NCBI GenBank assembly: GCA_934162265.1
Contig: CAKPHZ010000001.1
Coordinates: forward strand, 3,547-67,546
DNA length: 64,000 nucleotides
Source: an uncultured Bacilli bacterium
GTDB lineage: Bacteria; Bacillota_I; Bacilli_A; RF39; UBA660
Direction of reading: 5' to 3'
Positions 3,839-62,743 of the stretch are shown here, piece by piece; position 1 is the stretch's first letter; the number at the start of each line of letters is the position of its first letter. Position numbers and translations under genes: made by a program. A model generated the notes under the pieces. The model did no database searches and had not been told where the DNA came from. It saw only the letters and a program-made list of their open reading frames with translations.

Positions 3839-5248
3839 TTATTGTTCATTTATTACTTCATTTATTTTATCATGAGCCAATGTAACAGAAGGCATATTAG
3901 GATTCATCACATATAATTTAACACTAGGCATAGAATAAGTTTCACTCATACTTCCAGTACCATCTACATATTGACGTTCTATTTCAAAACTATTCATCTT
4001 ATTTAATTGATTTTTTACTAATAGAGTAATCAATTCTTTAGGCATGTCTGTTCTATATAAATCACTAAATGAATTTAGTAGACTATCATATTTTAAAAGA
4101 ATACTTCTATCTTTCATTATCTTTTCTAAGACTGCTGCTAATACTTGTTGTTGATTCTGTACTCTATGAATATCTCCATTACTGTATGCATATCTTTCTC
4201 TAGCATATGCTAAGGCTTGTTTTCCATTCATATGATTAATTCCTTGATTAACAGTCCATCCTTTAATATGAAATGACTGAAAAGTAATATCACTATCTAT
4301 ATCTATACCACCTACTAAATCTACTAATTCAACAATAGATGACATACTAACTTTAATAGAATAATCAATTTTAATATTAAATAAATCTTCTAATGTTTCT
4401 CTACTCATATCAACACCATATATACCAGCATGAGTTAGTTTATCTTTAAGTCCACTTGTACCATGTAACTGAACATAATAGTCTCTTGGAATACTAGTTA
4501 ATAAAATTTTATTTGTATTAGGATTAATACTAGCAATCATATTAACATCACTTCTAGAATTAGCAACAACACTATTACTTCTACTATCACTACCAGATAT
4601 ATAGATATTAAAAGAAGATAATTTTTCTATCTTTTTACTATTCGTTTTATTCTTCTTTTCGATAGGATAAGAATCAATAATTCTAATAGAAGAATTAAAA
4701 TCTTGATATTGTTCTTCTAACATATCTATATAACTATCTTCTATAACAATAGCATCTAATTCCTTATCCATAAGATTATAATATAACTTACTAATATCAT
4801 ATTCTTGATAATCAGCTTTAAGTTTATTTTCAATAACCTCTAAATAATTATAATAATCTGTCTCAATAGATAGATATCCTATTTTTTTATTTACTAAGTC
4901 ATCAATCTTCTTATATTGACTTTTCTTAAGTACAATAACATTATATTTTAAAGTTTCTATCTTATTATTATTAAAACTATGATTTAAATAATTAATCGTC
5001 TTGCTACCATACCAAATTCCTATTATAGATATAATCAATATGAAGATATATATTATGATGCTTAAAACTTTAAATACTTTTTTCTTCAGATGAATAAATA
5101 TAAATCCTAATATATTTAAAAGAATTAATATTCCTAAAAAAACATATAAATATTTATTAGGAATAATATTTATATCATTCACTATCTTATAACAATAAAT
5201 AGATAATAATAGCATTATTATTGCAATAATATTTTTTACTACTTTCAT
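3839..5248 (-). CDS. LytR-CpsA-Psr (LCP) family cell-envelope polymer transferase
   Basis: N-terminal transmembrane helices followed by the LCP core motif SGSDSRSNSVVANSRSDVNMIASINPNTNKILLTSIPRDYYV. The gene lies at the edge of a capsule/exopolysaccharide locus, like cpsA/lytR. Confidence 0.8.
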   Translation of the reverse strand: MKVVKNIIAIIMLLLSIYCYKIVNDINIIPNKYLYVFLGILILLNILGFIFIHLKKKVFKVLSIIIYIFILIISIIGIWYGSKTINYLNHSFNNNKIETLKYNVIVLKKSQYKKIDDLVNKKIGYLSIETDYYNYLEVIENKLKADYQEYDISKLYYNLMDKELDAIVIEDSYIDMLEEQYQDFNSSIRIIDSYPIEKKNKTNSKKIEKLSSFNIYISGSDSRSNSVVANSRSDVNMIASINPNTNKILLTSIPRDYYVQLHGTSGLKDKLTHAGIYGVDMSRETLEDLFNIKIDYSIKVSMSSIVELVDLVGGIDIDSDITFQSFHIKGWTVNQGINHMNGKQALAYARERYAYSNGDIHRVQNQQQVLAAVLEKIMKDRSILLKYDSLLNSFSDLYRTDMPKELITLLVKNQLNKMNSFEIERQYVDGTGSMSETYSMPSVKLYVMNPNMPSVTLAHDKINEVINEQ

Positions 5249-5344
5249 TCTTAATCTTACTCCTTATTAATTTTTATTGATTTTTTTCTTAATACAACTT
5301 TATTTTTATTTATATTTATGTATAATAAGATTAGGTGGTTAAGT

Positions 5345-5860
5345 ATGAATAAAAAGAAAGTTATTATTTCGTGGTTAATGGTAATGATATGGATGGGTAC
5401 TATTTTTTATTTATCGAATATGAATACTGGTGAATCTAATGGTAAAAGTAAAAAAGTAATTGATAAAGTGATTACTACTACTATTGATACTACTAATCAG
5501 ACTGGTATTACAGATGAGCATCCTACTAATAGAGAAAAAGAAAAATTAGTAGATACGTTAAATAAACCTTTAAGAAAATGTGCTCATGCTAGTGTTTATT
5601 TTATATTAGCAATATTAATACTATATTCTTTATTAAATACTTTTAATCACTTAACTCATCAATATTATCTTGCAATTATAATCACGATAGTGTTATGTTT
5701 TATTTATTCTTTAAGTGATGAATATCATCAAACATTTGTTCCTGGTAGAACAGGACAATTTAGTGATTGCCTAATAGATACAGGAGGTTCTTGTATAGGA
5801 ACTCTTTTCTATACATTAGGTAATAAAGTATATAAAAAAAGAAGAAAAAGGAAAGGATAA
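5345..5860 (+). CDS. VanZ-like family membrane protein
   Basis: Carries the VanZ-family motif DEYHQTFVPGRTGQFSDCLIDTGGSCIG. The start at 5345 (MNKKKVII) follows an AGGTGG RBS, whereas the track start at 5318 would contain that RBS. Confidence 0.7.
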   Translation: MNKKKVIISWLMVMIWMGTIFYLSNMNTGESNGKSKKVIDKVITTTIDTTNQTGITDEHPTNREKEKLVDTLNKPLRKCAHASVYFILAILILYSLLNTFNHLTHQYYLAIIITIVLCFIYSLSDEYHQTFVPGRTGQFSDCLIDTGGSCIGTLFYTLGNKVYKKRRKRKG

Positions 5861-5864
5861 TTGA

Positions 5865-5969
5865 ATGAAATATTTACTAATATTTGGGCTACTAGTTTTC
5901 ATCTTCTTCATCTTATTATTCATCTATTGTGCCCTAGTAGTATCATCTAGAAGTAATAATAAACATTAA
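5865..5969 (+). CDS. Possible 34-aa hydrophobic small membrane peptide
   Basis: ATG preceded by a GGAAAGGA RBS. The product is MKYLLIFGLLVFIFFILLFIYCALVVSSRSNNKH, and the ORF is immediately followed by a strong terminator hairpin. It is too short for the ORF track. Confidence 0.25.
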   Translation: MKYLLIFGLLVFIFFILLFIYCALVVSSRSNNKH

Positions 5970-5970
5970 A

Positions 5971-6001
5971 CTATTAACAAGTATTTGTTAATAGTTTTTT
6001 A
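5971..6001 (+). terminator. Rho-independent terminator
   Basis: ctattaacaa / ttgttaatag forms a 10-bp perfect stem with a 5-nt loop, followed by a TTTTTT run. Confidence 0.7.
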
Positions 6002-6232
6002 TCCTTCAAATATTTAATTGATACTATAATTTTTAAGACATTATTTCTAATTTAGAAAATTTAACCTACCTTGCATTCATCCATATATTGTAAATAATCC
6101 TCCATATTTATATTACATTTTTCTATTATTTCGTATTCATCTATATCACTTTTGTAACTTAAAATAATTTTTTATTATAAATATAAAATGAATTTTCTAG
6201 TTGTAAAAATACTATTTTGTTCAAAATTTATT

Positions 6233-7399
6233 TTAATCTCTAGCAAATAAATCTCTAGTATAAACTTTATCCATAACATCTTGAATATTATTGTCTAATC
6301 TATTTACAATAATAACATCAGATATTTCTTTAAATTCATCTATATCTTTAATCACCCTACTATTAAAGAAATTATCTTCTTTTAAAGTTGGTTCATAAAC
6401 AACAACTTCAATTCCTTTAGCTTTAATTCTTTTCATTACTCCTTGAATAGCACTTGCTCTAAAATTATCTGAACCAGATTTCATTGTTAATCTATAAATA
6501 CCAACAATTTTTGGATTTTTCTTAAGAATCATATTAGCGATATGATCTTTTCTCGTTTTATTAGATTCAACTATAGCACTAATAATATTTTCTGGAACAT
6601 CTTTATAATTAGCTTTTAATTGTTTACTATCCTTAGGAAGACAATATCCACCAAATCCAAAACTAGGATTATTATAGTGATTTCCTATTCTAGGGTCTAA
6701 ACATACACCATCAATAATATCTTTAGTATTTAATCCTTTTAATTCTGCATATGTATCTAATTCATTAAAGTAAGCAACACGAAGTGCTAAATAAGTATTA
6801 GCAAACAACTTCACAGCTTCTGCTTCAGTAGAACCCATATATTTAATTATTACATCATCTTTTAAACAATTATCCTTTAAAAGATTAGCAAAAACTTTAG
6901 CTCTATCACTTATCTCTCCTACAATAATTCTAGAAGGATATAAATTATCATATAAAGCTTTACCTTCTCTTAAAAATTCTGGACTAAACATAATATTATC
7001 AATACCATATTTTTCTTTCATTGATTTAATAAATCCAACAGGAATGGTAGATTTAACAACCATAGTTGTATCAATATTCATTGAAATAACTTTTTCGATA
7101 ATATCTTCAACAGAAGATGTATCAAAATAATCTTTTTCAGAATCATAATTAGTAGGTGTACTAATAATAATAAATTTAGCATTAGTAAATGCTTCTTTGT
7201 AATCTAAAGTTGCTTTTAAATTTAATTCTTTTTCTTTAAAATACTTCTCAATATATTCATCTTGAATAGGACTAATTCTATTATTAATTTTTTCTACTTT
7301 CTCTGGAATAACATCAAGTGCTACTACCTCATTATTTTGACTTAATAAAGTTGCTAAGGATAATCCAACATATCCTGTTCCTGCTACTGCTATTTTCAT
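6233..7399 (-). CDS. ugd: UDP-glucose 6-dehydrogenase
   Basis: N-terminal Rossmann motif [19 protein letters not shown], a GGYCLPKD catalytic-Cys region, and the 388-aa length typical of UDP-glucose/GDP-mannose dehydrogenases. Confidence 0.85.
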
Positions 7400-54482: not shown

Positions 54483-55436
54483 TTATTCTTCTTTTTCTAG
54501 GTAAGAGTTTTCTCCTAATTTATTAATTCTTTTTAAAGAAACTAAGAAACTTTGATATTCAGCACTAATTGTTCCTAAGACTTCGAAGTTTGTAATAATT
54601 TTATCGTAATAGGTGTAGACTAGGATAATTGTTCCTACTTCCATTTTTCCTATACTAATTAAATATACACTATAAATGATAATTCCATATTTGGTTAATT
54701 CAATAATTCCTAAAATTAAATAAATTAATGCTTGGGCTAATAAATTAAATCTTTTATTGGATCTTAAATATTCAATGTTACTTTGATGAAATTTTTTGAA
54801 AGTTGCTTCATCTATTGTTTTATCTTTTAACTTATCATAAATTTGATGAGCAATTACAGTTTTTTTATCTAGTGATGTTTTTCTTTTGATATTTTCATTT
54901 TTTATTTGACTACTAGAAATTATCATTAGGATAATCATTAGACTAGAGATTAAAAGGGTAATTAAAAAGATATAAATATTTTGGGTAAGAAAATAAAAGT
55001 AAATAAAAATAAGTTCTAAAACTTGGATAACTCTTGCAACTCCATTTCCTAAAAAATTACAAAGAATATCAATGTCACTATTCATGACGTTAGTATATTC
55101 ACCGAGGGTAATTTTTCCTATATTTCCATGATTATTTTTGGTAATTAAAGAGGTATAACCTAAATATAATTTATCATAAAACCTAAACCAACTTACTTGA
55201 TTTAGGTATTGCCAAATATAATAAAAACTACTGATAATAATGATAACAATAATTAAGGAATAAGTTTTTTGATAATTTGCTTCACTTAAATAATTGATGG
55301 TATTACTCCAAAATATAGGAATGATTAATAATAATCCTCTGATAAAAATTGAAGTAATAGTTTTATAGAATAATTCTTTTTTTGCTTCTTTTATAACAAT
55401 ATTAGTATAATTATCTTTATTTTTCATCTTATTCAC
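54483..55436 (-). CDS. ABC-exporter-like transmembrane domain protein lacking a nucleotide-binding domain
   Basis: About six transmembrane helices with the type-I exporter TMD pattern. No Walker or ABC-signature motifs, and no nucleotide-binding-domain gene adjacent. Confidence 0.4.
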   Translation of the reverse strand: MNKMKNKDNYTNIVIKEAKKELFYKTITSIFIRGLLLIIPIFWSNTINYLSEANYQKTYSLIIVIIIISSFYYIWQYLNQVSWFRFYDKLYLGYTSLITKNNHGNIGKITLGEYTNVMNSDIDILCNFLGNGVARVIQVLELIFIYFYFLTQNIYIFLITLLISSLMIILMIISSSQIKNENIKRKTSLDKKTVIAHQIYDKLKDKTIDEATFKKFHQSNIEYLRSNKRFNLLAQALIYLILGIIELTKYGIIIYSVYLISIGKMEVGTIILVYTYYDKIITNFEVLGTISAEYQSFLVSLKRINKLGENSYLEKEE

Positions 55437-55478: not shown

Positions 55479-55979
55479 TTAGTTATATTCATTTGTTTTT
55501 GGACACGAAGAATTAGTAGTTGATTTTGATTCTATTTTATAATTTACTTTTCCTGTTGTTATGTTTGTTTCTTTTTTGATTTCTATTTGACAACTTCCTA
55601 TATTTTTGCCATCTACTGGGTTGGTTAAAATTAATTTTTTTTCTCCTTCTTTTTCACTAGTGGTTCCTTTTAGATAACCATTACTGACTAAGGTTTGAAG
55701 ATTTACTGTAATGCTAGAATTTGTTATTTCTACTGGTGTTGCTGTTTTTGTTCCAGAATTGTCATAGGTATATACTTTTCCTTTCATGTAATTTACTTCT
55801 TCATATAATGATTGACTTGCTGTTTTAATATTAGATATCATAATGTTATAGCTACTTTTTTTGCTATTATTGATGGAATTTAATACTCCTGGTACAGCGA
55901 TTAATCCTAATATTGCAATGATAGCAATTACGGCTAATACTTCTATTAAAGTAAAACCTTTGTTATTTAATTTTTTCAT
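55479..55979 (-). CDS. Type IV pilin / competence pseudopilin (ComGC-like) with a class III signal peptide
   Basis: MKKLNNKGFTLIEVLAVIAIIAILGLIAVP is a prepilin leader with the G-FTLIE cleavage motif. The track ORF starts further upstream at 56072. Confidence 0.6.
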   Translation of the reverse strand: MKKLNNKGFTLIEVLAVIAIIAILGLIAVPGVLNSINNSKKSSYNIMISNIKTASQSLYEEVNYMKGKVYTYDNSGTKTATPVEITNSSITVNLQTLVSNGYLKGTTSEKEGEKKLILTNPVDGKNIGSCQIEIKKETNITTGKVNYKIESKSTTNSSCPKTNEYN

Positions 55980-56154
55980 CTTACCACCTACTTTAAGTAA
56001 AGTATATAATAAAAAGATATTCTTTTCAATGGAAAGGTTACTATTCACAGCTGAATAATAAAAAATATACACAGATTATGAGAAATTAAGTAAAAATAGC
56101 TCATAGTCTTTTTATAATGCAAAATATTTGATACAATAAAAAAAAGAAGGATAC

Positions 56155-56847
56155 GTGATGAAAATGGCAGAAATAAGTTTATCAAAATTACAAAAAAGAG
56201 TGACAAAATTAGAAAAAGATAATGCCGTGTTAAGAGATTTGTTAGAAGAAAGAAAACAAAAGCAATATAATGCAGAAAAACAATTAGAGTATTATAAAAA
56301 AAATCTAGAAAAAATAGTAAATACTGCTGTAAAAAAAGTAACTGAAGAACTAATGAAAGAAGTAAATAAATTAAAAGAAGAAAACGAACATTTAAAGAGA
56401 ATATTAAATCATGATAGTAGTAATAGTGGAATACCAACAAGCAGGACAAAAATTGGAGAAGCAAAAAGAGTTCCTAACTCTAGAAAAAAGAGTGAGCTGA
56501 AGAAAGGTGGACAACCAGGACATAAAAAACATAAATTAGAAAAGTTTGCAGATGATGAAATAACAGATACATATACATACGAAATAAAGAAACCAAAATG
56601 CAAAGAATGTGGAGGAAAATTAGAATTAATTGGAAAAAGATGTAAAGATGAATTTGATATCGAAATAAGATTAGTCAAGAGAAGAAATGAATTTTGTGAA
56701 TATAAATGTAGTTGCTGTGATAAAGTGATAAAAGTACCAATACCAGATAGATTAAAAGAGGAAAATCAATATGGAAGTAATGCTCAAGCATTAGCAATAT
56801 CACTAGTAAATGAAGGATATGTTTCATTTAGAAGAACAAGAGATTAA
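56155..56847 (+). CDS. IS66-family transposase, N-terminal part (leucine zipper plus zinc finger)
   Basis: Heptad-Leu coiled coil followed by the zinc-finger motif KCKECGGKL...CSCCDKV. Confidence 0.75.
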   Translation: MMKMAEISLSKLQKRVTKLEKDNAVLRDLLEERKQKQYNAEKQLEYYKKNLEKIVNTAVKKVTEELMKEVNKLKEENEHLKRILNHDSSNSGIPTSRTKIGEAKRVPNSRKKSELKKGGQPGHKKHKLEKFADDEITDTYTYEIKKPKCKECGGKLELIGKRCKDEFDIEIRLVKRRNEFCEYKCSCCDKVIKVPIPDRLKEENQYGSNAQALAISLVNEGYVSFRRTRD

Positions 56848-56870
56848 TAAGTGGTTTTACTGGTGGAGAA

Positions 56871-57722
56871 ATGGTAATGAGTGAAGGCTTCATATCAAAG
56901 TTACAAAAAAGATGTTACGACAAACTAGAAAATTTTGATAATGAAATTCATAAGAAAATACTAAGTCAAAGTATTTTGCATTGGGATGATACCGCTATAA
57001 GTATAAATGGAAAACAATCATGCTTAAGATTTTATGGAAATGAGAAAATAAAATATTACAAGGCACACGAACAAAAGAATAAAGCTGGAATTGATGAAGA
57101 TGGTATATTAAAGTTTTTATCAAAAGATACAGTTGTGATGCATGATCATAATTTAGTTAATTATAATGAGGATTATGATTTCACAAATGTAGAGTGTTGT
57201 GTTCATCTAATTAGAGATTTGAAAGAACTAAATGATTGTTTTCCAAGAGAATGGATTAATAAACTTATATCATTACTAGTAAATACTAATAATTTGAGAA
57301 AAGAATATATTAACAAAAATATATTACAATTCGATTATGAAGTATCAGACAATGTAATAAGAGAATATGATAAAATAATCGAAGAAGCTCAAAAAGTAAA
57401 TTCTAATGATTATAATGAGTATTACAGTAAAGATGAAAGTAGACTAATAAAAAGACTAATTAGATTTAAGGAAAATTACTTATTATGGGTTCTTAGATTT
57501 GATATTCCATTTTCTAATAATCTCAGTGAGAGAAGTTTAAGAAGTAGCAAAACGAAAATGAAGGTATCTGGACAGTTTTCAAATATTAAAAATGCAGAAT
57601 ATCTTGCTAGAATAAAATCGTATATTGAGACTTGTAAAAGTAATGATATAAATCCTCACGAAGCATTGATTAAACTTATAGAAGACAATCCATATACTTT
57701 AAGAGATATGAAAATAAACTAA
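56871..57722 (+). CDS. IS66-family transposase, C-terminal catalytic part
   Basis: CCVHLIRDLKEL matches the IS66 CWAHARRKF motif. It is in a different reading frame from the N-terminal part, in both IS copies. Confidence 0.75.
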   Translation: MVMSEGFISKLQKRCYDKLENFDNEIHKKILSQSILHWDDTAISINGKQSCLRFYGNEKIKYYKAHEQKNKAGIDEDGILKFLSKDTVVMHDHNLVNYNEDYDFTNVECCVHLIRDLKELNDCFPREWINKLISLLVNTNNLRKEYINKNILQFDYEVSDNVIREYDKIIEEAQKVNSNDYNEYYSKDESRLIKRLIRFKENYLLWVLRFDIPFSNNLSERSLRSSKTKMKVSGQFSNIKNAEYLARIKSYIETCKSNDINPHEALIKLIEDNPYTLRDMKIN

Positions 57723-57774
57723 GAAATCTTAGTTTATTTTGCGTGCAAGTTATTATTCAGCTGTGAATAGTAAC

Positions 57775-57984
57775 GATTAATTTTACTTTTACAGTATTTA
57801 CATTTTCCTTTTAGAGTGATATAGGATAGAAGAGGAATTAAGTCTTCAATAGCTAATTCATGTTTGCAAGCATCACAATAACTACAAAGTTTTCTCCTTT
57901 AATTAATCTTAGTCCTACAACACAAAAGAAAGAGCCCATTACTAAGCCCAGAATAAAGAAACTTATTAAATATATTATTTCCAT
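57775..57984 (-). pseudogene. Truncated prepilin peptidase (PilD/ComC) N-terminal fragment, frameshifted and cut by the IS copy 1 end
   Basis: MEIIYLISFFILGLVMGSFFCVVGLRLIKGENF..., then in another frame SYCDACKHELAIEDLIPLLSYITLKGKCKYCKSKINR (the CxxC-x21-CxxC zinc site of the prepilin peptidase N-terminal domain), ending exactly at the IS terminal inverted repeat. Confidence 0.6.
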
Positions 57985-57993
57985 ACTATCACC

Positions 57994-58258
57994 TACTGAA
58001 TCTTTAAATCTGTACTAGTTACTACAAAACATCCCATTGCTACTATACAAGAATCAGGATTAGTTTTTCTAAAACGATTAATCATCTTTCTACTCTTGAC
58101 ATCTGCTTGGTTTGTTACAGTACAGGTATTTATAATATAAACATCACATAAATCAGTAAAAGAAGCTATTTGATAGCCACTTTTTTTAATTCTTGTTCAA
58201 TATATTCACTTTCATAGGTATTAACTTTACATCCTAGAGTACAAATACCAACCTTCAT
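57994..58258 (-). pseudogene. Radical-SAM methylthiotransferase (MiaB/RimO-like) N-terminal MTTase-domain fragment, frameshifted and truncated
   Basis: MKVGICTLGCKVNTYESEYIEQELKK, then a frame change in an A7 run, then SGYQIASFTDLCDVYIINTCTVTNQADVKSRKMINRFRKTNPDSCIVAMGCFVVTS and a stop. All three MTTase Cys residues are present, but the radical-SAM core is absent. Confidence 0.6.
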
Positions 58259-58263
58259 TTTTA

Positions 58264-58917
58264 TCACTTCTTTCGGTTTAAAGTATAATATAATTTTTTA
58301 CAATCAGCACTTTTAGTTTTAGTTGTTGTTATTTTATCTGTTATATAATCTTTAGTTAAATCACTTGCCGTCATCATCTCTACCTTAACAAATTTTTCTA
58401 ATTGATTATTTCTTGTATCTATTTTTTCTCCATCAATTCTTCCTATTTGATAAGTATTTTTTAAAGTAGTAGAAGAAGCATAATAAGTACCATCGCTATC
58501 ATAAAATAAATAATTATTAAGCATATCAATACTTAAAGGTACTTCAAATGATAAACTTCCTCTTTCTTTCTCTAAAAACTCTAAAACAGCACTATCATGA
58601 GCATAACGATACTTTGCTATTTCCATACTATTTGTTTTACTTTTAGAAACAATATAAAGTAATTGCTCAGCATCATACATTCTTTGTTCTATCTCTTTTT
58701 TAGAAAAAGAAAGAAAATCTTTAAATTCTAATATTTCATCTCTTGATGATATAAGTTTTACATTATCTTCTCCTTCAACTAAAATAAAATCCTTTATTTT
58801 CTTTTCATTTAGTAATTCATCAGTAACAAATTCTAATGAAAACATATCTCTTAAATATAAAACATCTTTTTTTTGTATATAAATTGCATCACTTTTTAAA
58901 CTATCTGTAATTTTCAT
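58264..58917 (-). CDS. Hypothetical protein, 217 aa, carried between the two IS copies
   Basis: Intact ORF; no recognisable domain. Confidence 0.4.
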   Translation of the reverse strand: MKITDSLKSDAIYIQKKDVLYLRDMFSLEFVTDELLNEKKIKDFILVEGEDNVKLISSRDEILEFKDFLSFSKKEIEQRMYDAEQLLYIVSKSKTNSMEIAKYRYAHDSAVLEFLEKERGSLSFEVPLSIDMLNNYLFYDSDGTYYASSTTLKNTYQIGRIDGEKIDTRNNQLEKFVKVEMMTASDLTKDYITDKITTTKTKSADCKKLYYTLNRKK

Positions 58918-59117
58918 GTTATACCTCCTAAAGTGATTATTAGTATAACATATTTCTTATTAAGTTACTAGGTTAAATTAAGAATTTGGATCTCTGTCAG
59001 TTACTATTCACAGCTGAATAATAAAAAATATACACAGATTATGAGAAATTAAGTAAAAATAGCTCATAGTCTTTTTATAATGCAAAATATTTGATACAAT
59101 AAAAAAAAGAAGGATAC

Positions 59118-59810
59118 GTGATGAAAATGGCAGAAATAAGTTTATCAAAATTACAAAAAAGAGTGACAAAATTAGAAAAAGATAATGCCGTGTTAAGAGA
59201 TTTGTTAGAAGAAAGAAAACAAAAGCAATATAATGCAGAAAAACAATTAGAGTATTATAAAAAAAATCTAGAAAAAATAGTAAATACTGCTGTAAAAAAA
59301 GTAACTGAAGAACTAATGAAAGAAGTAAATAAATTAAAAGAAGAAAACGAACATTTAAAGAGAATATTAAATCATGATAGTAGTAATAGTGGAATACCAA
59401 CAAGCAGGACAAAAATTGGAGAAGCAAAAAGAGTTCCTAACTCTAGAAAAAAGAGTGAGCTGAAGAAAGGTGGACAACCAGGACATAAAAAACATAAATT
59501 AGAAAAGTTTGCAGATGATGAAATAACAGATACATATACATACGAAATAAAGAAACCAAAATGCAAAGAATGTGGAGGAAAATTAGAATTAATTGGAAAA
59601 AGATGTAAAGATGAATTTGATATCGAAATAAGATTAGTCAAGAGAAGAAATGAATTTTGTGAATATAAATGTAGTTGCTGTGATAAAGTGATAAAAGTAC
59701 CAATACCAGATAGATTAAAAGAGGAAAATCAATATGGAAGTAATGCTCAAGCATTAGCAATATCACTAGTAAATGAAGGATATGTTTCATTTAGAAGAAC
59801 AAGAGATTAA
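59118..59810 (+). CDS. IS66-family transposase, N-terminal part (copy 2)
   Basis: Identical to 56155-56847. Confidence 0.75.
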   Translation: MMKMAEISLSKLQKRVTKLEKDNAVLRDLLEERKQKQYNAEKQLEYYKKNLEKIVNTAVKKVTEELMKEVNKLKEENEHLKRILNHDSSNSGIPTSRTKIGEAKRVPNSRKKSELKKGGQPGHKKHKLEKFADDEITDTYTYEIKKPKCKECGGKLELIGKRCKDEFDIEIRLVKRRNEFCEYKCSCCDKVIKVPIPDRLKEENQYGSNAQALAISLVNEGYVSFRRTRD

Positions 59811-59833
59811 TAAGTGGTTTTACTGGTGGAGAA

Positions 59834-60685
59834 ATGGTAATGAGTGAAGGCTTCATATCAAAGTTACAAAAAAGATGTTACGACAAACTAGAAAATTTTG
59901 ATAATGAAATTCATAAGAAAATACTAAGTCAAAGTATTTTGCATTGGGATGATACCGCTATAAGTATAAATGGAAAACAATCATGCTTAAGATTTTATGG
60001 AAATGAGAAAATAAAATATTACAAGGCACACGAACAAAAGAATAAAGCTGGAATTGATGAAGATGGTATATTAAAGTTTTTATCAAAAGATACAGTTGTG
60101 ATGCATGATCATAATTTAGTTAATTATAATGAGGATTATGATTTCACAAATGTAGAGTGTTGTGTTCATCTAATTAGAGATTTGAAAGAACTAAATGATT
60201 GTTTTCCAAGAGAATGGATTAATAAACTTATATCATTACTAGTAAATACTAATAATTTGAGAAAAGAATATATTAACAAAAATATATTACAATTCGATTA
60301 TGAAGTATCAGACAATGTAATAAGAGAATATGATAAAATAATCGAAGAAGCTCAAAAAGTAAATTCTAATGATTATAATGAGTATTACAGTAAAGATGAA
60401 AGTAGACTAATAAAAAGACTAATTAGATTTAAGGAAAATTACTTATTATGGGTTCTTAGATTTGATATTCCATTTTCTAATAATCTCAGTGAGAGAAGTT
60501 TAAGAAGTAGCAAAACGAAAATGAAGGTATCTGGACAGTTTTCAAATATTAAAAATGCAGAATATCTTGCTAGAATAAAATCGTATATTGAGACTTGTAA
60601 AAGTAATGATATAAATCCTCACGAAGCATTGATTAAACTTATAGAAGACAATCCATATACTTTAAGAGATATGAAAATAAACTAA
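59834..60685 (+). CDS. IS66-family transposase, C-terminal part (copy 2)
   Basis: Identical to 56871-57722. Confidence 0.75.
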   Translation: MVMSEGFISKLQKRCYDKLENFDNEIHKKILSQSILHWDDTAISINGKQSCLRFYGNEKIKYYKAHEQKNKAGIDEDGILKFLSKDTVVMHDHNLVNYNEDYDFTNVECCVHLIRDLKELNDCFPREWINKLISLLVNTNNLRKEYINKNILQFDYEVSDNVIREYDKIIEEAQKVNSNDYNEYYSKDESRLIKRLIRFKENYLLWVLRFDIPFSNNLSERSLRSSKTKMKVSGQFSNIKNAEYLARIKSYIETCKSNDINPHEALIKLIEDNPYTLRDMKIN

Positions 60686-60754
60686 GAAATCTTAGTTTAT
60701 TTTGCGTGCAAGTTATTATTCAGCTGTGAATAGTAACATGGAAAGAGTATCTTT

Positions 60755-60991
60755 TTAACTTTTTTTACTATCAATTAAGATAATGTCATCTCCTATTTTT
60801 ACTAGTTGCTGCCAATCTAGATAAACTTCATCTTTATTTGTACTTAAAAATCTTCTACTTCCTCTTGTTTCTTCTAGAACAATTTTGGAAATATTTCCTG
60901 ATGAAGAAATAATTACATCAATAATTGAGCCTATTCTTTTTCCACTTGCAACATCTACTACTTCTTTAGTTTGTAAGTCAGATAAGTTCAT
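60755..60991 (-). CDS. ylmC: YlmC/YmxH family sporulation protein (PRC-barrel-like)
   Basis: 78 aa. MNLSDLQTKEVVDVASGKRIGSIIDV matches the YlmC/YmxH N-terminus. Adjacent to sigG. Confidence 0.7.
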   Translation of the reverse strand: MNLSDLQTKEVVDVASGKRIGSIIDVIISSSGNISKIVLEETRGSRRFLSTNKDEVYLDWQQLVKIGDDIILIDSKKS

Positions 60992-61010: not shown

Positions 61011-61787
61011 TTATTCCTTAATGTTCTTTTTCAGTACTTTAATCGCATTTTTTTCAATTCTAGAGATTTGGGCTTGGCTAATTCCTAGTTCACTTGCTAT
61101 TTCCATTTGTGTTTTTCCTATCATAAACCTTTCTTCTATAATTTGTTTATCTCTTGGTTTTAAATTACTCATTGCTTTTGCGACTGCTAATTTATAATCT
61201 ATGTCATATTCTTCTTTTTTGTTACTAATTTGATCAAAAAGATAGATGGTATCTCCTCCGTCGTTATAAATTGGTTCGTACATACTCATTGGTTCTCTTA
61301 ATGATTCTAAGGCATTAGAAATTTCAAATTCTGTTACTCCTAATATTGTTGCAATCTCTTTATCTGTTGGTTCTATTCCATTTGTCGTTACTAATTCTTC
61401 TTTTAATTTTAAGGTTTTATAAGCTAAATCTTTAATACTTCGACTTACTCTTAAGGAAGAATTATCTCTTAAATATCTTTTAATTTCTCCTAATATCATG
61501 GGAACTGCATAGGTAGATAGTTTTACATCATAACTGATATCAAAATTATCGATTGCCTTTACTAATCCTAAACAGCCTACTTGAAATAGATCATCTAAAT
61601 TATCCGTTTTGCCATTAAATTTTCTTAAAATTGATAAAACTAATTTTAGATTTCCACTGATTAAATCCTCTCTGGCAAAGGGATCTCCTTCTTTTAATTT
61701 TTGAAATAATTCTTTGTTCTCTTCATTAGTTAAAACCTTCATATTCGCAGTATTCACGCCACAGATATCTACTTTATGACGTGCCAT
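61011..61787 (-). CDS. sigG: Sporulation sigma factor SigG (sigma-70 family)
   Basis: Near-collinear match to the SigG signature: KVDICGVNTANMKVLTNEE, DDLFQVGCLGLVKAIDNFD, STYAVPMILGEIKRYLRDN, and the region-4 helix-turn-helix GKTQMEIASELGISQAQISRIEK. Confidence 0.85.
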   Translation of the reverse strand: MARHKVDICGVNTANMKVLTNEENKELFQKLKEGDPFAREDLISGNLKLVLSILRKFNGKTDNLDDLFQVGCLGLVKAIDNFDISYDVKLSTYAVPMILGEIKRYLRDNSSLRVSRSIKDLAYKTLKLKEELVTTNGIEPTDKEIATILGVTEFEISNALESLREPMSMYEPIYNDGGDTIYLFDQISNKKEEYDIDYKLAVAKAMSNLKPRDKQIIEERFMIGKTQMEIASELGISQAQISRIEKNAIKVLKKNIKE

Positions 61788-61840: not shown

Positions 61841-62743
61841 TTAATCTTTAATTTTATATTCTTTTTTAAATGTTTTATATGACATTTCTTCTTTTAATTC
61901 TGGATGAATTGTTTTTAAAAGAGGTAGAGGATTGTTGTTTGGTTTAGAAAGATAGATGGTATTAAATATTTTTAGTAATTCTTTATCTATACCAATATCT
62001 TTTAAATGGAATAAATATTTATAAAATATATCTAATTCTTTTTTATACATTTCTTCTTCTGCTAGAGTATTTAATAATATCATATTATAACAATATAAAT
62101 CTGTATCATTACTTGGAATCATTATTCCAGATTGTGTTAATTTATATTTATCGGGAATAGATTCTAAATATTTATTTTTTAAAAGATAGTATGCTGTATG
62201 AGAGGGTTCATCTTGTCCTACATAGACACTATCTAAATCAATAGCCCGAACAATATCAGTTTTATCGATAATAAAATTAAATTCATTGAAGTCTCCAAAA
62301 TTCATTTTAAAGCTTTCTTCTTTTACTTCTTGAACTTGATGAAGAATTTTTCCTACTTGTTTTAAATATTCTAATTTTTTGCTGAATTTATTTTCTTCTT
62401 TGGATAGAAAAATTCCTAAATTGGTATGATTTTCTATTAATGGTAGGGCAAATCCTGCTATTTTATTATCTACTACTATAATTGTATCGGGAATGATTAA
62501 TTCTTTTATTTGTTTATAATATCTTGAACTATTTAATAAATTTAGTGCATACATTTTTCTGCCCATAATTTTTTCATCATCTTGTGCATCTAAATATTTA
62601 AATAGCATTCTTTCTCCATTTTCGGTTTTAACCTGATGTTTGTTTAAGACTAACATTAAGGCTTCTGTATTTAATGTTCCTCTTTCTAATACTAATTCTT
62701 TTAATTTTCTTAATTGGTGCATTCTTAAATTAACGATTTTCAT
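61841..62743 (-). CDS. Hypothetical phosphotransferase-fold (APH/CotS/choline-kinase-like) protein
   Basis: NFGDFNEFNFIID...IDLDSVYV resembles the HGDxxxxN...IDFE catalytic and Mg-binding loops of the APH/CotS family; 300 aa. Confidence 0.4.
   Translation of the reverse strand: MKIVNLRMHQLRKLKELVLERGTLNTEALMLVLNKHQVKTENGERMLFKYLDAQDDEKIMGRKMYALNLLNSSRYYKQIKELIIPDTIIVVDNKIAGFALPLIENHTNLGIFLSKEENKFSKKLEYLKQVGKILHQVQEVKEESFKMNFGDFNEFNFIIDKTDIVRAIDLDSVYVGQDEPSHTAYYLLKNKYLESIPDKYKLTQSGIMIPSNDTDLYCYNMILLNTLAEEEMYKKELDIFYKYLFHLKDIGIDKELLKIFNTIYLSKPNNNPLPLLKTIHPELKEEMSYKTFKKEYKIKD

Follow-up and report, generated by a model that had tools for sequence, protein, structure and literature searches.

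A probable compound transposon made of two frameshifted IS66-family insertion sequences in an uncultured Bacilli bacterium

Between a pilin-like gene and the ylmC-sigG genes of an uncultured Bacilli bacterium (contig CAKPHZ010000001.1 of assembly GCA_934162265.1), the whole stretch of 64,000 nucleotides analysed here, called the window in what follows, carries two copies of an insertion sequence (IS) of the IS66 family, separated by a short piece of unrelated DNA that we call the cargo. The locus raises the question of whether the two copies and the cargo entered this position together, as a single mobile unit, how such a unit could have been assembled, and why the transposase of both copies is split between two reading frames. 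Most probably, the structure is a genuine compound transposon that was inserted en bloc with an 8-bp duplication of its target and that is now crippled.

When the two IS copies were compared again, no mismatches were found over the 1738 bp of each of them, their identity ended exactly at each border, on the left as well as on the right, and each copy was delimited by a perfect 25-bp terminal inverted repeat (GTTACTATTCACAGCTGAATAATAA), in full agreement with the original prediction. The copies lie in direct orientation, and neither a third copy nor a further end of the IS was found in the 64-kb window. The octamer ATGGAAAG stands immediately outside the pair on both sides and has no other occurrence on the + strand of the window, the chance agreement of two 8-mers at the window base composition being about 8e-5; the sequences at the inner junctions (GATTAATT after copy 1 vs. 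CTCTGTCA before copy 2) have nothing in common, also as predicted. This is the layout of a compound transposon, with the 8-bp duplication outside the IS pair and not around each IS, and the block flanked by it (IS copy 1, cargo and IS copy 2) measures 4701 bp. Two separate insertions of the IS were considered as well and rejected, as each IS would then have its own duplication and the inner junctions share nothing.

The original prediction implied that an empty version of the insertion site (site a) should be found in relatives, and such versions were looked up; all the sequences compared are metagenome assemblies. An identical YlmC protein is encoded on many contigs, and among the 10 that were listed, nine (L001-L004 and L006-L010) have the pilin gene 66 bp further on, the tenth (L005) being the window's own scaffold. 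The empty site (...TTTTCAATGGAAAGAGTATC...) of these nine contigs contains a single ATGGAAAG and corresponds base for base to the two window flanks joined together. Because nine of the 10 YlmC-bearing contigs have the uninterrupted site, the insertion at site a is a minority allele in the population, and the site is polymorphic. The possibility that the cargo was native local DNA was rejected, since the uninterrupted locus has just 66 bp between ylmC and the pilin gene.

The same unit was also detected at a second position (site b), downstream of a phosphoglycerate mutase (iPGM) gene and near spo0A, in samples other than that of the window. There, the cargo is identical in 1224 of 1225 nt and lies between two IS copies, the arrangement being complete in five contigs (L012, L013, L014, L016 and L017), and the whole is surrounded by a different 8-bp direct repeat (TTTTCTTT). 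Three partial contigs (L015, L019 and L042) run from the iPGM-side flank through the IS into the cargo, and another one (L041) contains the iPGM-side flank and the IS only. Site b also exists in an empty version, with one TTTTCTTT and flanks that are 98.7% identical, in L079-L081, which include contigs of 1.39 Mb and 155 kb; two of them, L079 and L080, look like long-read assemblies. When JGI metagenomes were scanned for the exact pattern of the rebuilt empty site b, no match was obtained, although the single extra T that real empty sites have in a T-run would alone defeat this pattern. The presence of the unit at a second site with its own 8-bp repeat, together with the empty version of that site, supports the movement of the IS-cargo-IS unit as one block, which is what the original prediction had proposed from the window alone.

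A census of the junctions in all the recovered contigs of this IS revealed only four types, namely one outer pair at site a, another at site b and the two junctions with the cargo, and in none of these contigs was a site-a or site-b flank joined to anything else. The flanks of site a run through the IS into the cargo in three samples, on both sides in the window, on the ylmC side in L018 and on the pilin side in L020, and the 217-aa protein encoded by the cargo was located solely between copies of this IS. The coordinates of all the features are collected in Table 1.

Table 1. Features of the IS-cargo-IS block and of its immediate surroundings, in window coordinates (TSD, target-site duplication; IRL and IRR, left and right terminal inverted repeats; ORF, open reading frame; aa, amino acids).
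Feature	Position	Strand	Remarks
Prepilin-type pilin, flanking gene	55479..55979	-	start codon 50 bp from the insertion point
Left TSD, ATGGAAAG	56029..56036	.	read from sequence; single copy in the empty site of L001-L004 and L006-L010
IS copy 1, 1738 bp	56037..57774	+	IS66 family, ISBst12-like single-ORF type, frameshifted
IRL / IRR of IS copy 1	56037-56061 / 57750-57774		perfect 25-bp repeat
ORF1, N-terminal 229/230 aa of the transposase	56155/56158..56847	+	coiled-coil and CxxC...CxxC zinc-finger region; NF033517, weak zf-IS66 match
1-nt deletion site	56842..56843	+	intact GAGAATTAA vs. window GAGATTAA
ORF2, C-terminal 281/283 aa of the transposase	56871..57722	+	whole DDE catalytic part (WDDT, HDH and NNLSER motifs, CCxH); DDE_Tnp_IS66
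Cargo, 1225 bp	57775..58999	-	circularly permuted pilC / prepilin peptidase / orf217 / radical-SAM piece, as read from the alignment
Prepilin peptidase gene, 5' fragment (~73 codons)	57775..57984	-	10-nt deletion; cut by IS copy 1
pilC 3' end and intergenic spacer	57985-58009	-	
MiaB-like radical-SAM gene, 5' fragment (~84 codons)	58008..58258	-	internal frameshift; ends at the non-IS junction 58008/58009
orf217, intact 217-aa gene	58264..58917	-	only intact cargo gene
IS copy 2	59000..60737	+	identical to copy 1; IRL 59000-59024, IRR 60713-60737
ORF1 / ORF2 of IS copy 2	59118-59810 / 59834-60685	+	
Right TSD, ATGGAAAG	60738..60745	.	sequence and empty site
YlmC/YmxH sporulation protein, flanking gene	60755..60991	-	66 bp upstream of the pilin gene in uninterrupted genomes
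258-aa sigma-70-family factor	61011-61787	-	sigG of the original prediction

The transposase is the second peculiarity of the locus. In both IS copies it is found as two ORFs with 23 nt between them, ORF2 being in the -1 frame relative to ORF1, as had been described; for ORF2, the gene callers begin at the second ATG and produce the 281-aa form, the 283-aa form having no exact match in the databases. Three explanations had been offered for this arrangement, a shared inactivating mutation, a programmed frameshift or a natural two-ORF organisation of the subgroup, and only the first of them survived the comparison with other alleles. The site-b contigs L014-L017 carry an IS of 1739 bp with one ORF of 521 amino acids, and just two changes separate the window IS from that of L014 and L017, namely an A/G substitution at position 56255 and the loss of one A at 56842/56843. 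It is the loss of this A that creates ORF1, the 23-nt spacer and ORF2. From these alleles, the two-frame transposase is to be read as the result of a shared 1-nt deletion and not as a design, and the two apparent genes of each copy as one pseudogenised gene.

The opposite explanation, that the two-frame transposase is functional by design, either through a programmed -1 ribosomal frameshift or as the normal state of a two-ORF subgroup, is so improbable that it can hardly be maintained. In the IS3 and IS1 families, a programmed -1 frameshift fuses two ORFs, and in the window ORF2 does lie in the -1 frame, is open from 56832 onwards and overlaps the first frame for 16 nt, the same split being present in several samples. 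However, copies with just one extra A encode the single 521-aa ORF, and all 120 listed homologues are single proteins of 465-548 amino acids (except for one sequence of 422), as are the three relatives found in genomes. Furthermore, the 16-nt stretch open in both frames (from 56832) contains neither an X XXY YYZ heptamer nor a homopolymer of at least 5 nt. Finally, a second 1-nt deletion allele (GATACC to GATCC, at the equivalent of window position 56991), which splits the protein into parts of 280 and 194 amino acids in L012, L013 and L019, shows that these elements accumulate frameshifts.

As the two deletion alleles are different, frameshift decay has happened at least twice. Their distribution follows the insertion sites: the window deletion is common to all the site-a contigs and is otherwise found only in contigs without a chromosomal flank; the second deletion was seen only at site b, whose contigs have either the intact allele or this other frameshift. 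An alignment of 12 diverse homologues revealed as invariant the residues C148, C151, C184, C187, D277/D278, D330, the CCxH motif at 347-350 and E458, and the break at residue 229/230 separates a presumed DNA-binding part from the complete catalytic part. The window element is thus probably non-autonomous and would move only with an intact copy supplying the transposase in trans. Regarding the history of the deletion, either the mutation came first and the block was then mobilised in trans, or the mutation arose at site a, its presence in both copies being due to gene conversion or to assembly collapse.

In L018, L020 and L024, which come from other samples and have site-a flanks or no flank, the frameshift of the window is accompanied by about eight differences clustered within the initial 300 nt of the IS (equivalents of window positions 56138-56339) and by an A-run that is 1 nt shorter. 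Such a pattern points to recombination between variants of the IS or to an older insertion shared by the samples.

The origin of the cargo could be traced by comparison with the native locus of a homologue of orf217 (94% identical), around which the order of the genes is pilC (T2SSF), prepilin peptidase, orf217, a MiaB-like radical-SAM gene and RecD2. Nucleotides 14-992 of the cargo correspond, with 96% identity, to positions 5932-6911 of the native contig L030, which run from the extreme 3' end of the peptidase gene through orf217 to nucleotide 260 of the radical-SAM gene. Nucleotides 991-1225 correspond, with 93% identity, to positions 5155-5399 of the same contig, which run from the 3' end of pilC to nucleotide 220 of the peptidase gene. 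These two native pieces are joined in permuted order at 58008/58009, with at most about 2 nt of shared sequence at the join, and the IS stands in the place of native positions 5400-5931. The alignment thus shows the cargo as a circular permutation of the native pilC / prepilin peptidase / orf217 / radical-SAM locus, and its progenitor would accordingly have been tandemly duplicated or circular. A stretch next to IS copy 2 that remained unmatched (TGACAGAG ATCCA) is about as long as the target duplication, and the following 980 nt are 96% identical to the native locus.

With respect to its content, nothing in the cargo points to an adaptive, resistance or defence function. For orf217, searches against Pfam, NCBIfam and PADLOC gave no match, and its PHROG match was meaningless (E = 0.019). 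Its homologues form a small family of 46 clusters, none of them with a Pfam domain on record and one of them named 'hypothetical protein', and an AlphaFold2 model built with 27 homologues was unusable (pLDDT 48.4, pTM 0.31).

The observed structure would be explained most simply by the following sequence of events. The IS would first have inserted in the prepilin peptidase gene, and the segment containing it would then have been tandemly duplicated or circularised, producing the join at 58008/58009. The IS-cargo-IS core of such a progenitor would in this way have become mobile, with a transposase acting on the outermost repeats, IRL of copy 1 and IRR of copy 2, and the resulting 4701-bp block would have entered the 66 bp that separate ylmC from the pilin gene, duplicating ATGGAAAG.

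Classical compound transposons are of the Tn5, Tn9 and Tn10 type, and Tn6097 of Paracoccus is a further example (PMC3281130). As in these, the unit described here consists of two IS copies around unrelated DNA, has an outer target duplication and occurs at more than one site, and its IS copies are direct repeats, as in Tn9. In contrast to them, its cargo is one small gene with two pseudogene fragments and the transposase is broken in both IS copies. Compound transposons, the IS66 family and its ISBst12 group are all well known, and mobile segments flanked by IS66 elements have already been reported, as in the IS66-flanked guuH/bguH cluster found on Pseudomonas plasmids (bioRxiv 10.1101/2025.04.28.651035).

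The permuted cargo also has to be considered from another side, as it is the expected look of a circularised fragment that contains an IS. The block could be the footprint of a translocatable unit like those of IS26, in which a circle of 2.96 kb, made of one IS and the cargo, integrates and the outer ends of the two IS copies never act together. Such integration could proceed by replicative transposition through a cointegrate, in which case the IS is duplicated and the 8-bp repeat is created. Alternatively, the circle could recombine homologously with a solo IS that already stood at ATGGAAAG. A single cointegrate step would explain the direct orientation of the IS copies, the permutation of the cargo and the private mutation shared by both copies in each lineage, since replicative duplication makes the two copies identical by descent, frameshift included. 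The loop-like contig L024, produced by MEGAHIT and composed of the IS, the cargo and the first 119 nt of the IS again, is also in line with a circle, and ISDge4, a member of the ISBst12 group from Deinococcus geothermalis, is reported to transpose without loss of the donor copy, in a mode termed 'copy-and-paste' (PMC12898284).

Despite this, we consider integration of a circle unlikely. No solo IS was found at site a or site b in the recovered contigs, whereas the recombination version needs one twice; a loop-like contig is also expected from a collapsed tandem repeat, and a tandem duplication explains the permutation equally well. To our knowledge, neither cointegrates nor translocatable units have been reported for the IS66 family. 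The direct IS copies, the outer 8-bp duplication and the permuted cargo hinting at a circle are shared with the pseudo-compound transposons and translocatable units of IS26 (IS6 family), but the transposase here belongs to the IS66 family, not to IS6, and no circle was observed among our contigs. Thus, that the block is the trace of a cointegrate formed by the 2.96-kb circle has only an outside chance of being right; if true, it would be the first hint of cointegrate-type mobilisation in a poorly characterised family.

Compound transposition of the whole block, which we favour, has in turn to face several points that weigh against it. The structure would look alike after two-ended compound transposition and after the integration of a cointegrate or translocatable unit. 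Both window IS copies are frameshifted, though with intact ends, and intact copies were found only in other samples; should the deletion be older than the insertion at site a, that insertion would have needed a helper copy. The empty site b (TTTTTTTCTTTTT) is not exactly that rebuilt from the occupied flanks (TTTTTTTCTTTT), from which it differs by one extra T in a T-run, and the 8-12 nt of the cargo that adjoin IS copy 2 (58987-58999; TGACAGAG ATCCA on the - strand) match none of nine versions of the native locus.

The remaining points of this kind concern the assemblies. The window is identical over 11,246 nt to the ENA scaffold ERZ28614475 MERR22-1_SAMEA4766111 scaffold_563 (74.5 kb), and this scaffold and most of the related contigs are, by their names, Hadza human-gut metagenome assemblies; the naming of the unit-carrying contigs also suggests short reads. 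A repeat of 1.74 kb is too long to be bridged by read pairs of a few hundred bp, and the identity of the copies and their shared frameshift may be assembly products, with one collapsed repeat path used twice. If the reads were short, little weight can be given to the perfect identity between the copies, since a de Bruijn assembler would run twice through a single collapsed path. Likewise, the flank-IS-cargo-IS-flank order is also expected from the traversal of a loop by the assembler and would look the same for a solo IS plus a free circle of IS and cargo. Moreover, L082 (2876-4612) and L083 (2441-4177) contain 1737-bp relatives of the IS with mismatched flanks, the right flank of L082 (TAAACATT) being the left flank of L083; these contigs are either chimeric joins across the IS or IS-mediated rearrangements, and errors of the former kind may occur in these data. 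The IS relative of L083 adjoins a phage-type integrase and an IS91-family (Y2) transposase.

Taken to its end, this line of argument makes the block an assembly artefact, in which a solo IS at site a and a cargo loop located elsewhere, at site b or on a free circle, were threaded through a collapsed IS node. The window does equal a metagenome scaffold, its 1.74-kb repeat is longer than the inserts usual for short reads, in other samples assembled with MEGAHIT the IS stands as a contig of its own of 1738 bp (L026) or within the loop-like one (L024), and L082 and L083 suggest chimeric joins across related copies. However, three samples (window, L018 and L020) link the site-a flanks through the IS to the cargo, a second record of the contig, at NCBI (74,627 bp), has the same 281-aa ORF2 and sigma factor, and there was no contig in which the site-a flanks enclose a single IS or in which flanks of sites a and b are mixed. 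In addition, the frameshift allele of the window appears only with site-a flanks or with no chromosomal flank, whereas site b has other alleles. An artefact of this type is therefore regarded as highly improbable.

The IS itself had been placed in the IS66 family by the original prediction, and the assignment held. ORF2 matches the Pfam family DDE_Tnp_IS66 (PF03050; E = 1.6e-16), and on the NCBIfam model NF033517 ('IS66 family transposase') ORF1 covers positions 1-110 and ORF2 positions 120-385. Each half of the window transposase alone stays below the cut-off of this model because the gene is split, whereas the intact 521-aa protein reaches 193.2 bits (cut-off 180) and covers positions 1-385 of 387. 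There are 118 nt before the transposase gene and 52 nt after its stop, with no space for tnpA and tnpB, and no other family-matched ORF was found in the 1738 bp of the IS. The terminal repeat starts with GTTACTATTCACAGC, in keeping with the length of about 15-30 bp and the GTA/GTnA start that characterise the repeats of the IS66 family, and the ends are of the form GTnACT...TCA..AGC.

As for relatives, a solo one (L037) is 93% identical, measures 1736 bp, has one ORF of 519 amino acids and is flanked by an 8-bp duplication (GACTAATC). The nearest annotated relatives listed are IS66-family single-ORF transposases from Bacillus, Clostridium, Pseudanabaena, Geobacillus and Fischerella plasmids, with 26-29% amino acid identity. 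More than 1300 homologues of the transposase were found in metagenomes, and only three in species-representative genomes, all of them uncultured metagenome-assembled genomes. A scan of metagenome contigs for the 19-mer of the IS ends gave 30 heterogeneous loci, and naive pairing of the ends from these loci yielded no clean elements or duplications. Because it combines one ORF, an 8-bp duplication and ends of the above form, the element can be classified in the ISBst12 group, as a new and divergent single-ORF member of the IS66 family with less than 30% amino acid identity to the nearest annotated relatives listed.

Comparison with described elements is consistent with this placement. As in ISBst12 of Geobacillus stearothermophilus and in ISDge4, there is a single ORF for a DDE transposase, tnpA and tnpB are lacking and the target duplication is of 8 bp. 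For ISDge4, a single ORF, a direct repeat of 8 bp and the ends GTGACTACTCAGCA / GTAACTGCTCAGCA are described (PMC12898284), the former being alike to the GTTACTATTCACAGC of our element. In contrast to ISDge4, our transposase has 521 instead of 449 amino acids and our 25-bp repeats are perfect, and the host is an uncultured, low-GC, sporulating gut bacterium. Copies of IS66/ISBst12 elements are also present in Geobacillus kaustophilus (PMC8024623), and ISPpa5a and ISPpa7 likewise produce 8-bp duplications (PMC3281130).

With canonical IS66/IS679 elements, our IS shares a transposase homologous to TnpC (DDE_Tnp_IS66), an upstream zinc-finger region and the 8-bp duplication, but it has no accessory genes and measures 1.74 kb vs. 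~2.5-2.8 kb. These canonical elements, with the order tnpA-tnpB-tnpC, were reportedly described by Han et al. in 2001 and by Gourbeyre et al. in 2010. Their ends usually start with GTAAGCG, whereas those of our element start with GTTAC.

The mechanism of transposition of the IS66 family is still poorly characterised, and the present locus documents a new divergent element of the ISBst12 group for which the ends, the target duplication, an intact copy for reference and two frameshift alleles of independent origin are defined. Its permuted cargo amounts to a small natural experiment on the birth of compound transposons, by tandem duplication or by a circle of an IS-containing segment. In more practical terms, the polymorphic insertion is usable as a strain marker, and the two 'transposase genes' annotated per copy should become one pseudogenised gene.

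The neighbours named in the original prediction, a pilin-like gene on one side and ylmC-sigG on the other, were matched as a prepilin-type pilin, YlmC/YmxH and a sigma-70-family factor. The GC content of the window is 26.8%, and no rRNA was found in it; sporulation genes, which mark this lineage, are present both in the window (ylmC, sigma factor) and on the site-b contigs (Spo0A). The insertion would interrupt any read-through from sigG-ylmC into the pilin gene. Upstream of the latter, on the - strand, a promoter-like TTGAAA-17-TATACT extends from 56029 to 56001; it is a consensus match only, in a count not above chance, and it begins at the first base of the left ATGGAAAG copy, so it is intact after the insertion. 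The pilin gene is adjoined by a gene for a 317-aa membrane protein (54483-55436, - strand) with a weak ABC_membrane match. On the other side, between sigG and a hisS-like gene, a 300-aa ORF (61841-62743, - strand) with no Pfam family on record is kept in all the related contigs.

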